From: Escherichia coli
Lineage (GTDB): Bacteria > Pseudomonadota > Gammaproteobacteria > Enterobacterales > Enterobacteriaceae
Strand: one strand, 5' to 3'
NCBI RefSeq assembly: GCF_003790525.1
Contig: NZ_CP033635.1
Length of the DNA stretch: 64,000 bases
Below are positions 5,637 to 14,589 of this stretch, piece after piece. A program made the translations under genes and the position numbers. The notes beneath the pieces are model-generated. The model made no database searches. It worked only from the letters and a program-made list of their open reading frames with translations, and had not been told where the DNA came from. How positions within the stretch are numbered: position 1 is the stretch's first letter; each line of letters begins with the position of its first letter.

Positions 5637-6407
5637 TTAATGATCGAGGACGATCAGTGGTGAATGGTTGGCAGGATCTTTAAGTACGGTAATATCCGCG
5701 CCGTAGAGCATTGTCAGCGCCTGCTGTGTCAATACGTCCTGCGGCTTACCATTTGCGATAACCTTTCCTTTTTGCATTAATACAACACGGTCTGCATAAC
5801 GCGCGGCAAGATTTAGATCGTGCAATACGCAGCAAACATTGAACTGCCGTTCGTGAACTAACTGGCGTAATAAACGAAACAAGTGCTGCTGATGGTGAAT
5901 ATCCAGCGCCGAAGTTGGTTCATCAAGAAATAACCATTTCGGTGAGGGAGTAGGTTCCCAGAGTTGCACCAGCAGGCGCGCTAATTGCACGCGCTGTTGT
6001 TCACCACCGGATAATTGCCGATAGTCGCGGTTTGCTAACGCCTGACAGTCACATAACGCTATTATTTGTGCTGTTTCATTATCCTGATTACCAGTACGAT
6101 GCGGATGCCGCCCCATCTGGATAACTTCTTGTACGCTGAATGGAAACGCCATGTGGCTATTTTGACGCATCACGGCCCGGTGTTTCGCCAGTTCAGTAAT
6201 CGACCATTCATTTAATGGCTTATTAAACAACCGACATTCGCCGCTATCAGGTTGAAGATAGCCGGTTAGCTGGCGAAGCAGCGTAGATTTTCCCGCACCA
6301 TTAGGGCCGAGGATGGCAACAATTTCCCCACCGGGAAAAGTCAGCGAGACATTATCAGTCAGACGCCGCCCCTGAAGGCTATAAACCAGATTCTGGGCGC
6401 TGATCAT
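5637..6407 (-). CDS. chuV: haemin ABC transporter ATP-binding protein ChuV/HmuV
   Basis: Walker [10 protein letters not shown], signature LSGGEQQR, Walker [12 protein letters not shown]; start taken at internal ATG 6407 ([11 protein letters not shown]), which overlaps the chuU stop by 4 nt (ATGA); the 307-aa track ORF is an upstream extension. Confidence 0.88.
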
Positions 6408-7396
6408 GTGATCCTCCGGTTGCGCAGAATCAACCACATAAAATAAGGGCCACCAAGCAGGCTGGTTAATAATCCCACGGGCATTTCTGCTGGCTGTACC
6501 AGCGTGCGGGCAAGCGTGTCTGCCATCAGCAATAAACAGGCTCCGGCGAGGGCGGAACAAGGGATTAGCCAGCGGTGATTTGCCCCGGTAGTCATGCGAA
6601 TCAGATGCGGGATCACCAGGCCAATAAAGCCGATAATGCCGCTTACCGATACGGCGGCACCAACGAGCAGTGAGCTCACTAACAGTAATTGCTGGCGTTT
6701 ACGCTTAACGTTCACGCCGAGGTAGTGGGCTTCTTCATCACCGAGCTGCAGTAAATTCAGCGTTCCGGCGAGACAAGTTGTTGCGATAATGGCCGGTAGG
6801 ATGAATGAACTGGCAACCAATAACGTCGGCCATTGCGCCTGTCCAAGATTGCCCATCATCCACAATGTGAGTTGTCGTAGCTGCTGCTCATCGCCGATAT
6901 AGCTCAGGATGCCGATCGCTGCGCCGCACAGGGCATTGATGGCGATACCGGCGAGTAATAATTGCATCATGCTGCCATCGCGATGGCGCTGCGTGATGAG
7001 AAAAATGATGGTGCAGACCACTAAACTTCCGGCAATGGCAAACACCATTTGCTCATAGAGCACCAGCACCACTGGGAAGGAGAAGGGCAGCACAATAGCA
7101 ACGCCAACCATTAATGCAGAACCGCTACTGACGCCAAGTAATCCAGGGTCAGCCATTGGGTTGCGAAAAAGCCCTTGCATAATTACCCCTGCGGTTGCCA
7201 ACGCTGCACCTACCAGCACCGCCAGCAAAACCCTTGGTAGACGAATATTGAGCCAGATATCGCGGTATTCCTCATCAAAAAGGGCATCAAAACTGATCTT
7301 TAACGCTCCCTGACTGGCACCAAACAGCACCAGAGCGAGCAATAATAGTGATAGCCCCATAAAGACCCTGGCGGAAGAGAGTGAATCCTTGAGCAC
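6404..7396 (-). CDS. chuU: haemin ABC transporter permease ChuU
   Basis: 330-aa polytopic membrane ORF of FecCD/BtuC type, between chuY and chuV. Confidence 0.88.
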
Positions 7397-7444
7397 GCAA
7401 AACTCCGTTACGACATTACGGCGCGGACATACCGCGCCGGGGGA

Positions 7445-11529: not shown

Positions 11530-13512
11530 ATGTCACGTCCGCAATTTACCTCGTTGCGTTTGAGTTTGTTGGCTTTGGCTGTTTCTGCCACCTTGCCAAC
11601 GTTTGCTTTTGCTACTGAAACCATGACCGTTACGGCAACGGGGAATGCACGTAGTTCCTTCGAAGCGCCTATGATGGTCAGCGTTATCGACACTTCCGCT
11701 CCTGAAAATCAAACGGCTACTTCAGCCACTGATTTGCTGCGTCATGTTCCTGGAATTACTCTTGATGGTACCGGACGAACCAACGGTCAGGATGTAAATA
11801 TGCGTGGCTATGATCATCGCGGCGTGCTGGTTCTTGTCGATGGTGTTCGCCAGGGAACGGATACCGGACACCTGAATGGCACTTTTCTCGATCCGGCGCT
11901 GATCAAGCGTGTTGAGATTGTTCGCGGACCTTCAGCATTACTGTATGGCAGTGGCGCGCTGGGTGGAGTGATCTCCTACGATACGGTCGATGCAAAAGAT
12001 TTATTGCAGGAAGGACAAAGCAGTGGTTTTCGTGTCTTTGGTACTGGCGGCACGGGGGACCATAGCCTGGGATTAGGCGCGAGCGCGTTTGGGCGAACTG
12101 AAAATCTGGATGGTATTGTGGCCTGGTCCAGTCGCGATCGGGGTGATTTACGCCAGAGCAATGGTGAAACCGCGCCGAATGACGAGTCCATTAATAACAT
12201 GCTGGCGAAAGGGACTTGGCAAATTGATTCAGCCCAGTCTCTGAGCGGTTTAGTGCGTTACTACAACAACGACGCGCGTGAACCAAAAAATCCGCAGACT
12301 GTTGAGGCTTCTGATAGCAGCAACCCGATGGTTGATCGTTCAACAATTCAACGCGATGCGCAGCTTTCTTATAAACTCGCCCCGCAGGGCAACGACTGGT
12401 TAAATGCAGATGCAAAAATTTACTGGTCGGAAGTCCGTATTAATGCGCAAAACACGGGGAGTTCCGGCGAGTATCGTGAACAGATAACAAAAGGAGCCAG
12501 GCTGGAGAACCGTTCCACTCTATTTGCCGACAGTTTCGCTTCTCACTTACTGACATATGGCGGTGAGTATTATCGTCAGGAACAACATCCGGGCGGCGCG
12601 ACCACGGGCTTCCCGCAAGCAAAAATCGATTTTAGCTCTGGCTGGCTACAGGATGAGATCACCTTACGCGATCTGCCGATTACCCTGCTTGGCGGAACCC
12701 GCTATGACAGTTATCGCGGTAGCAGCGACGGCTACAAAGATGTTGATGCTGACAAATGGTCATCTCGTGCGGGGATGACTATCAACCCGACCAACTGGCT
12801 GATGTTATTTGGCTCATATGCCCAGGCATTCCGCGCCCCGACGATGGGCGAAATGTATAACGATTCTAAGCACTTCTCGATTGGTCGCTTCTATACCAAC
12901 TATTGGGTGCCAAACCCGAACTTACGTCCGGAAACTAACGAAACTCAGGAGTACGGTTTTGGGCTGCGTTTTGATGACCTGATGTTGTCCAATGATGCTC
13001 TGGAATTTAAAGCCAGCTACTTTGATACCAAAGCGAAGGATTACATCTCCACGACCGTCGATTTCGCGGCGGCGACAACTATGTCGTATAACGTCCCGAA
13101 CGCCAAAATCTGGGGCTGGGATGTAATGACGAAATATACCACTGATCTGTTTAGCCTTGATGTGGCCTATAACCGTACCCGCGGCAAAGACACCGATACT
13201 GGGGAATATATCTCCAGCATTAACCCGGATACCGTTACCAGTACCCTGAATATTCCGATCGCTCACAGTGGCTTCTCTGTTGGGTGGGTTGGTACGTTTG
13301 CCGATCGCTCAACACATATCAGCAGCAGTTACAGCAAACAACCAGGCTATGGCGTGAATGATTTCTACGTCAGTTATCAAGGACAACAGGCGCTCAAAGG
13401 TATGACCACTACTTTGGTGTTGGGTAACGCTTTCGACAAAGAGTACTGGTCACCACAAGGCATCCCACAGGATGGTCGTAACGGAAAAATTTTCGTGAGT
13501 TATCAATGGTAA
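11530..13512 (+). CDS. chuA: TonB-dependent outer membrane haem/haemoglobin receptor ChuA
   Basis: 660-aa ORF, signal peptide, TonB-dependent receptor plug and barrel, C-terminal aromatic residue (W); sequence recognised as ChuA/ShuA. Confidence 0.93.
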   Translation: MSRPQFTSLRLSLLALAVSATLPTFAFATETMTVTATGNARSSFEAPMMVSVIDTSAPENQTATSATDLLRHVPGITLDGTGRTNGQDVNMRGYDHRGVLVLVDGVRQGTDTGHLNGTFLDPALIKRVEIVRGPSALLYGSGALGGVISYDTVDAKDLLQEGQSSGFRVFGTGGTGDHSLGLGASAFGRTENLDGIVAWSSRDRGDLRQSNGETAPNDESINNMLAKGTWQIDSAQSLSGLVRYYNNDAREPKNPQTVEASDSSNPMVDRSTIQRDAQLSYKLAPQGNDWLNADAKIYWSEVRINAQNTGSSGEYREQITKGARLENRSTLFADSFASHLLTYGGEYYRQEQHPGGATTGFPQAKIDFSSGWLQDEITLRDLPITLLGGTRYDSYRGSSDGYKDVDADKWSSRAGMTINPTNWLMLFGSYAQAFRAPTMGEMYNDSKHFSIGRFYTNYWVPNPNLRPETNETQEYGFGLRFDDLMLSNDALEFKASYFDTKAKDYISTTVDFAAATTMSYNVPNAKIWGWDVMTKYTTDLFSLDVAYNRTRGKDTDTGEYISSINPDTVTSTLNIPIAHSGFSVGWVGTFADRSTHISSSYSKQPGYGVNDFYVSYQGQQALKGMTTTLVLGNAFDKEYWSPQGIPQDGRNGKIFVSYQW

Positions 13513-13560
13513 TCATCTGCCCCGATATTTCGGGGCATTTATCTGGAAGGAAGAGAGACA

Positions 13561-14589
13561 ATGAACCACTACACACGCTGGCTTGAGTTAAAAGAACAAA
13601 ATCCCGGAAAGTACGCGCGTGACATCGCAGGTTTAATGAATATCAGCGAAGCAGAACTGGCATTTGCGCGCGTCACGCACGACGCGTGGCGGATGCGCGG
13701 CGATATCCGTGACATTCTGGCGGCGCTCGAAAGTGTTGGCGAGACCAAATGTATTTGCCGTAATGAATATGCAGTCCATGAGCAAGTTGGTGCGTTCACA
13801 AACCAGCATTTGAACGGACATGCCGGATTGATCCTCAATCCGCGCGCGCTGGATTTACGTCTGTTTCTCAATCAATGGGCCAGTGTTTTCCACATCAAAG
13901 AAAACACGGCTCGTGGCGAACGCCAGAGTATTCAGTTCTTTGATCATCAGGGCGATGCATTACTAAAAGTTTATGCCACCGACAATACCGATATGGCGGC
14001 ATGGAGTGAGCTTCTGGCACGGTTTATCACCGATGAGAATACGCCGCTTGAGTTAAAAGCCGTTGATGCGCCAGTTGTTCAAACGCGAGCCGATGCCAGT
14101 GTGGTCGAGCAAGAGTGGCGGGCGATGACCGACGTTCATCAGTTTTTTACGTTGCTCAAGCGCCACAACCTGACGCGCCAACAGGCGTTCAATCTGGTGG
14201 CAGACGATTTGGCCTGCAAAGTATCCAACAGTGCGTTGGCGCAAATTCTTGAATCTGCACAGCAGGATGGCAATGAAATCATGGTGTTTGTTGGCAACCG
14301 TGGCTGCGTACAGATTTTCACTGGCGTGGTAGAAAAAGTGGTGCCAATGAAAGGTTGGCTGAATATTTTTAACCCGACGTTTACTCTTCATCTATTAGAA
14401 GAGAGCATTGCTGAAACCTGGGTAACCCGTAAACCTGCTAGTGACGGTTATGTGACCAGTCTGGAATTGTTTGCCCATGATGGTACGCAGATAGCGCAAC
14501 TTTATGGTCAACGTACAGAAGGCGAACAGGAGCAAGCGCAATGGCGTAAGCAAATTGCTTCGCTGATACCGGAAGGCGTTACTGCATAA
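13561..14589 (+). CDS. chuS: haem oxygenase / haem degradation protein ChuS
   Basis: 342-aa ORF immediately downstream of chuA; sequence recognised as ChuS/ShuS. Confidence 0.9.
   Translation: MNHYTRWLELKEQNPGKYARDIAGLMNISEAELAFARVTHDAWRMRGDIRDILAALESVGETKCICRNEYAVHEQVGAFTNQHLNGHAGLILNPRALDLRLFLNQWASVFHIKENTARGERQSIQFFDHQGDALLKVYATDNTDMAAWSELLARFITDENTPLELKAVDAPVVQTRADASVVEQEWRAMTDVHQFFTLLKRHNLTRQQAFNLVADDLACKVSNSALAQILESAQQDGNEIMVFVGNRGCVQIFTGVVEKVVPMKGWLNIFNPTFTLHLLEESIAETWVTRKPASDGYVTSLELFAHDGTQIAQLYGQRTEGEQEQAQWRKQIASLIPEGVTA

Follow-up and report, generated by a model that had tools for sequence, protein, structure and literature searches.

How does a block of genes that carries no mobility genes of its own come to be so cleanly present in some genomes of a species and so cleanly absent from others? 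The question is raised by the chu haem-utilisation locus, eight genes lying between yhiD and dctR in a stretch of 64,000 nucleotides of the Escherichia coli contig NZ_CP033635.1 (assembly GCF_003790525.1). This whole stretch is called the window below, and positions refer to it. We consider it nearly certain that the region is a complete and intact Chu locus for haem acquisition and utilisation, equivalent to the Shu locus of Shigella, for which we also propose a mode of regulation and a history. In a megablast search against 5,426 complete E. coli genomes, positions 3000–17500 are identical, and ungapped, to E. coli SMS-3-5 (chromosome NC_010498.1); the same span is matched equally well by no fewer than 16 other complete genomes, whose sources are humans, chickens, dogs, a pangolin and river water. 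The genes, called from the listing of open reading frames (ORFs) and from the RefSeq annotation of NC_010498.1 converted to window coordinates, are the following.

4938–5585, plus strand: yhiD, left flank, part of the acid fitness island (annotation; NF007431, 402 bits)
5591–14649: DNA specific to the chu island, 9,059 bp, 50.4% G+C (comparison with the K-12 junction; base composition)
5637–6407, minus strand: chuV, ATPase of the haem ATP-binding cassette (ABC) transporter, 256 residues (NF010068, 395 bits against a cut-off of 261; RefSeq)
6404–7396, minus strand: chuU, permease of the haem ABC transporter, 330 residues (RefSeq ShuU/ChuU)
7445–8068, minus strand: chuY, anaerobilin reductase, 207 residues (PDB 5ffq and 5guy, E ~1e-134 over the full length; RefSeq)
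8068–8562, minus strand: chuX, cytosolic haem carrier, 164 residues (TIGR04108 HutX, 209 bits against a cut-off of 110)
8575–9912, minus strand: chuW, radical S-adenosylmethionine (SAM) methyltransferase of anaerobic haem degradation, 445 residues (TIGR04107, 569 bits against a cut-off of 400)
9932–10846, minus strand: chuT, periplasmic haem-binding protein, 304 residues as annotated (PDB 2r7a; RefSeq)
11530–13512, plus strand: chuA, TonB-dependent outer-membrane receptor for haem and haemoglobin, 660 residues (TIGR01785, 588 bits against a cut-off of 317)
13561–14589, plus strand: chuS, cytoplasmic haem-degrading enzyme, 342 residues (PDB 1u9t and 4cdp, E ~1e-228 over the full length; RefSeq)
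14650–15180, minus strand: dctR (yhiF), right flank, part of the acid fitness island (annotation)

The original prediction had recognised the same eight genes, chuVUYXWT on the minus strand diverging from chuA and chuS on the plus strand, and had given a span, 5637–14589, that runs exactly from the stop codon of chuV to that of chuS; both the ORFs and the RefSeq annotation bear it out. All eight chu ORFs are full length, and the ORF listing holds no others in 5591–14649 except short overlapping frames. The assignment to a ChuA/ShuA-type system is likewise corroborated by matches to Chu, Shu and Hut entries in NCBIfam, PDB and RefSeq. ChuA, ChuV, ChuW and ChuX pass curated NCBIfam models, and ChuS, ChuY, ChuA and ChuT are near-identical to solved structures, with ChuS, ChuY and mature ChuA aligned end to end: in the PDB sequence search 3fhh (ShuA) and 9dhe match residues 29–660 of ChuA (E = 0), and 2r7a (ShuT) matches residues 49–304 of ChuT (E 1.5e-161). 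The same search settled the identities of ChuY, which has no match in NCBIfam, and of ChuS, whose only match there is a weak HutX-like one. We also observe that the annotated ChuT start, the ATG at 10846 (minus strand), places 27 residues before a textbook signal peptide, MVKRKKLFTALLALSWTFSVTA, which begins at an internal ATG at 10765 (minus strand); the solved ShuT chain begins aligning at residue 49, and the upstream ATG is the shuT start used in published shuT work (PMC5458455). Read directly from the sequence, the stop codon of chuX overlaps the start codon of chuY by 1 nt (GCC TGATG ACG) and that of chuU overlaps the start of chuV by 4 nt (ATGA). Both overlaps had been predicted and are real, and translational coupling may reasonably be inferred from them. 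The spacer between chuA and chuS measures 48 bp.

The roles of the Chu proteins are established knowledge for the family and are carried over here through sequence identity only. ChuA, energised by TonB, would bring haem across the outer membrane, ChuT would convey it through the periplasm, and ChuUV would pump it into the cytoplasm, where ChuS would degrade it aerobically; the anaerobic handling of haem and the release of its iron would fall to the radical-SAM enzyme ChuW, the carrier ChuX and the anaerobilin reductase ChuY.

What could control the expression of these genes? The two divergent units, chuAS and chuTWXYUV, would both start within the chuT–chuA intergenic region (10847–11529), which is unusually long (683 bp) and AT-rich (37.5% G+C). 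When all 19-mers of the 64-kb window are scored for agreement with the Fur consensus, the three best matches, all of them predicted sites, fall in this one spacer (10870–11239), and further candidate elements are found within it and elsewhere in the island.

5605–5631, plus strand: G+C-rich hairpin with an 11-pair stem and a T-run, between the convergent yhiD and chuV (terminator scan)
10870–10888 and 10876–10894: two overlapping predicted Fur boxes upstream of chuT, matching the consensus at 16 and 15 of 19 positions, second and third best in the window
11201–11239, plus strand: promoter-like site TTGATC-17-AATAAT together with a Fur box, the putative chuA promoter
11221–11239: predicted Fur box matching at 17 of 19 positions and overlapping the promoter-like site that faces chuA, best in the 64-kb window
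11501–11532, plus strand: shuA/chuA FourU RNA thermometer (Rfam RF02597) covering the Shine–Dalgarno sequence and start codon of chuA
13518–13537, plus strand: strong GC hairpin of eight pairs followed by a T-run, in the chuA–chuS spacer (terminator scan)

Since predicted Fur boxes stand at both units, both should be repressed by Fur when iron is plentiful. The matches at 10870–10894 coincide in position with the mapped shuT Fur site of Shigella, which lies just downstream of a transcription start that is itself 42 nt before the start codon (PMC5458455). A minus-strand promoter-like site at 10874–10845 was rejected, since it would run into the start codon of chuT as annotated and is at odds with the transcription start published for shuT. 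From the position of the putative promoter, the chuA leader would be about 290 nt long. It holds a 61-codon ORF with a TTG start (11244–11429), and within the intergenic region RefSeq passes over one locus tag, RS19195; according to PMC3660397, what the leader does ahead of the thermometer is unresolved. The thermometer itself matches RF02597 over the full model length with 60.1 bits (gathering score 58; E 1.5e-7) and ends on the ATG of chuA; the other Rfam matches, mir-761 and ceN63, are eukaryotic families scoring below threshold at the level of chance (E 0.55–0.96). The thermometer has been demonstrated experimentally in Shigella and in uropathogenic E. coli (PMC3660397), and published experiments document the control of shuA/chuA by Fur and the thermometer, and the control of shuT (PMC3660397, PMC5458455). 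In the present locus the thermometer would thus add a second gate to chuA, freeing its translation at 37 °C. Of the two hairpins, that at 5605–5631 is conserved in the Escherichia loci L004 and L007 and probably terminates transcription at the island's left edge, and that at 13518–13537 is kept in four other Escherichia lineages (L004, L005, L007 and E. albertii) and may act as an attenuator or partial terminator setting the ratio of ChuA to ChuS.

The arrangement is that of well-described loci. The shu locus of Shigella dysenteriae and the chu locus of E. coli O157:H7 (Wyckoff et al. 1998, Mol Microbiol 28:1139, as cited in PMC5799925 and PMC4746246) have the same eight genes in the same divergent two-unit layout at the same site between yhiD and dctR, with the same Fur boxes and the same FourU thermometer at chuA. 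No structural difference separates them from the locus studied here: the DNA of O157:H7 is 97.0% identical over the whole 9,058 bp, allelic differences among E. coli amount to 0–3.2%, and the host differs in being a water isolate of phylogroup F and not a named pathogen. For both O157:H7 and E. albertii, the literature also gives the acid fitness island as the site of the haem locus (PMC5799925, PMC9144400). The Hem/Hmu system of Yersinia (hemRSTUV) and the Phu system of Pseudomonas follow the same logic of a TonB-dependent receptor, a periplasmic binding protein, an ABC importer and a cytoplasmic HemS/PhuS-type haem protein, but their proteins share only moderate sequence identity with Chu proteins (ChuS is matched by HemS at E 8e-151 and by PhuS at E 1e-76, and ChuT by HmuT/PhuT-type proteins at about 1e-42). 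Within this comparison, which was one of proteins and not of gene content, neither the anaerobic chuWXY module nor a site in the acid fitness island is recorded for them. The resemblance to the hutWXZ genes of Vibrio and hugWXZ of Plesiomonas lies in ChuW and ChuX, which pass the HutW and HutX equivalog models. The third anaerobic gene differs, being chuY, for an NAD(P)H-binding anaerobilin reductase (PDB 5guy), in Chu, and hutZ in the hutWXZ set of Vibrio. Descriptions of the locus, of where it lies, how it is regulated and how patchily it is distributed go back to 1998, and chuA serves routinely as a marker in phylotyping.

It is the boundaries of the island that bear on its history. The original prediction had taken yhiD and dctR to be neighbours in K-12, and rightly so: in MG1655 dctR (b3507) and yhiD (b3508) are adjacent and convergent, with stop codons 41 bp apart and none of the eight genes between them. 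Reading the junctions side by side, we find that homology to K-12 stops at 5590, five bases (tctgt) past the TAA of yhiD, and restarts at 14650 with the stop codon of dctR, so that comparison with K-12 and other E. coli genomes delimits the island at 5591–14649. In its place K-12 has 36 unrelated base pairs (gtggcagcgtagccagactcaccgtaagcctgaaat), which implies that the event separating the two forms was a replacement and not a pure insertion. The description of the island as inserted therefore holds relative to K-12 but fails as an account of a simple insertion, given an ancient block that replaces a 36-bp spacer and bears no signatures of mobility. The possibility that the K-12 spacer is a remnant of the island was considered and rejected: a comparison by eye with the island ends and the region of the chuY junction gave no alignment beyond a CGCCG microhomology.

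Both forms of the junction are common. The island occurs in 2,238 of the 5,426 complete E. coli genomes (41%), of which 2,234 hold at least 80% of the block in one match and four hold less, and its identity among them ranges from 96.8 to 100%. It is always chromosomal, with 2,239 matching places in the 2,238 genomes, that is, a single extra place. The K-12-type empty junction is the form seen in 3,179 genomes, with identities of at least 99.3%. Carriers of the island include isolates from water, wild birds and bats.

To judge the age of the two forms we turned to relatives of DctR, taking one genome per species, which yielded six Escherichia loci, with E. fergusonii and the E. coli representative not among them. 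The full island adjoins dctR in E. albertii, E. coli E69 and E. coli SCPM-O-B-8794; in the latter two both junctions are the same as in SMS-3-5, and in E. albertii the junction on the dctR side aligns. Identities to SMS-3-5 were compared between the island and its flank.

MOD1-EC7003: chuS and chuA 95.8%; dctR–slp flank 95.5%
SCPM-O-B-8794: chuS and chuA 91.5%; dctR–slp flank 91.8%
E69: chuS and chuA 91.8%; dctR–slp flank 84.8%
E. albertii: chuS and chuA 89.2%; dctR–slp flank 84.4%

The two values are nearly equal in the two nearer lineages, and in the two more remote ones divergence is greater in the flank than in the island, a pattern which speaks for a long joint residence and against a recent import. 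The empty form, in turn, is found in E. whittamii and Escherichia sp. E1V33, whose 37-bp spacer can be aligned with the 36 bp of K-12 (by our own count from the alignments, K-12 and E. whittamii agree at 22 of 37 positions). Because the spacer is alignable in other species, the K-12 junction is not a simple deletion scar. Filled and empty forms thus both appear to be old, and the insertion would predate E. coli.

A third form is present in Escherichia sp. MOD1-EC7003 (L005, 13648–14295), which has only chuA and chuS, with a repeat resembling the enterobacterial repetitive intergenic consensus (ERIC) in place of chuTWXYUV. This ERIC-like repeat abuts the usual point five bases past the stop codon of yhiD, and the chuA leader contains an insertion of a second copy, inverted and about 125 bp long.

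Hybrids of filled and empty alleles exist as well. In the complete E. coli genomes HH45 and HH97, chuV, chuU and a truncated chuY are joined to an intact K-12-type 36-bp spacer and to a K-12-like 3' part of dctR. The junction, GGCCAGCTA-CGCC-GTGGCAGCG, is the same in both (HH45, L003 8140–8190; HH97, L010 ~3690–3740); nearby single-nucleotide polymorphisms differ between the two genomes despite the common junction. In the slp–dctR flank, K-12 and SMS-3-5 differ at 21 sites; at 18 of these, among them all those in the junction-proximal part of dctR, HH45 and HH97 agree with K-12. The end of yhiD (AGCTAATCTGTG) and the site within chuY (AGCTATCGCCG) share imperfect microhomology. This allele looks like the product of one homologous crossover and one illegitimate join between chu-positive and empty alleles.

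In all, the junction takes at least four forms, namely the empty spacer of 36–37 bp, the complete island, chuAS by itself, and chuV, chuU and a truncated chuY joined to the spacer. In all lineages that bear yhiD the alleles break within 1 bp of the point five bases past its stop codon, except in HH45 and HH97, where the break lies inside chuY. That the spacer can be aligned in other species, and that hybrid alleles occur naturally, suggests the replacement of alleles by recombination, a modest refinement of what was known. Filled and empty forms would coexist as old alleles which homologous recombination in the flanking genes can swap, and such an exchange would leave behind a ‘clean’ absence. 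We put forward, tentatively and with chances that we rate a little short of even, that the dctR–yhiD junction is an old multi-allelic polymorphism across Escherichia species, in which the empty allele is ancestral and the presence of chu is set by homologous replacement and not by insertion or deletion.

An alternative history, in which the locus is ancestral and was deleted in the lineage of K-12 (phylogroups A, B1 and C), leaving the K-12 junction as a scar, seems to us unlikely. It can draw on the presence of the island next to dctR in E. albertii and divergent Escherichia, where it co-diverges with its flank, and on the partial alleles, which demonstrate that losses do happen; insertion followed by clean deletion was also raised as one option by the xenoGI paper (PMC5799925). 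However, the 36 bp of the empty site are absent from the island allele and could not have been created by a plain deletion, while the spacer of E. whittamii and of Escherichia sp. E1V33 lies in the same place and can be aligned with it. Nor are there flanking repeats that could have served for excision: the 160-bp ends of the island share only two 8-mers, TATTTATT and AAGGCGTT, and 48% of shuffled sequences share at least one. Loss through replacement by an empty allele may have occurred, and is already part of our main interpretation.

It is far less credible that the locus is a classical pathogenicity island, recently acquired through a mobile element and marking pathogenic strains. Its absence from K-12, its G+C content of 50.4% against 37–40% in the immediate flanks, and the documented role of ChuA as a virulence factor in uropathogenic E. 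coli (PMC4746246) might be taken to indicate as much. Yet the island is close in composition to the window average (49.6%), and it is the low-GC acid fitness island around it that forms the compositional outlier. ARAGORN finds no transfer RNA or transfer-messenger RNA gene in window positions 1–25000, the NCBIfam matches and RefSeq annotation contain no integrase, transposase or insertion sequence (IS), all eight ORFs being haem genes, and the terminal repeats do not exceed chance. A block that is never found on plasmids, is single-copy but for one extra place, and is shared by 41% of complete genomes, environmental and wildlife isolates included, does not fit this description either. Its high identity within E. 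coli, together with a cross-species divergence that keeps step with the flank, points to long vertical residence. Least credible of all is the notion that the locus is a decayed, non-functional remnant in this strain: the environmental origin of the source strain (PMC2408644) and the truncated alleles of HH45, HH97 and MOD1-EC7003 could be cited for it, but the eight full-length ORFs, the end-to-end structure alignments (from residue 49 in ChuT), the intact regulatory elements and the identical DNA in at least 17 complete genomes of different sources all contradict it.

Some observations do weigh against our interpretation of an intact, regulated locus of old standing. ChuU is the weakest assignment, as NCBIfam returns only family-level matches to BtuC/FecCD-type permeases, all below cut-offs; its proposed identity comes from the permease family, the operon context and the RefSeq name. 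Promoter-like sites are fewer than in shuffled sequence (7 against 11.3), and the placement of the promoter consequently rests on the Fur boxes and the published Shigella work. In E. albertii the left junction differs, in that yhiD is absent and chuV abuts hdeB. The six outgroup genomes, which do not include E. fergusonii, cannot prove the original direction, whether an insertion that replaced the spacer or a loss. Finally, haem uptake by SMS-3-5 is deduced from orthology.

As a side observation on the E. albertii junction, in strain NBRC 107761 (L008, 19566–19623) the chuV stop codon lies about 55 bp from that of hdeB. Beyond dctR, the window carries yhiS as an intact ORF of 407 residues (in the region 16145–19375), which in K-12 is a pseudogene disrupted by IS5. 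A permease gene and a regulator of the ArsR/SmtB family lie between yhiS and arsC; they are without counterpart in the K-12 annotation of that interval and are present in E. whittamii. At 18286–18294 the window reads AAA where NC_010498.1 has AAAA, a 1-bp deletion that splits the 333-residue ‘permease’ into ORFs at 17948–18292 and 18286–18960. The alignment span implies a second 1-bp gap within 15001–40000, and the eight best-matching complete genomes listed all agree in having these two bases that the window lacks.

What does the locus say about the strain that carries it? SMS-3-5 is a water isolate of serotype O19:H34, phylogroup F and sequence type ST354, listed as non-pathogenic (PMC11537424, PMC2408644). 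The original prediction of a non-K-12 strain is sustained by the 100% match to this genome, whereas the accompanying attribution to a probably pathogenic lineage proves loose, for a water isolate and a locus found in 41% of genomes. In the Clermont phylotyping scheme it is phylogroups B2, D, E, F and G that chuA identifies, and not pathogenicity. The island is thus a marker of phylogroup (non-A/B1/C) and not of pathogens, and its use as a strain indicator lies in ruling out K-12 and phylogroups A, B1 and C. The finding also touches the historical question of how a block without mobility genes can be so cleanly present or absent. If the multi-allelic interpretation of the dctR–yhiD junction is true, it would answer the ‘puzzling distribution’ of the locus raised by Wyckoff et al. 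(1998) and by the xenoGI paper (PMC5799925).

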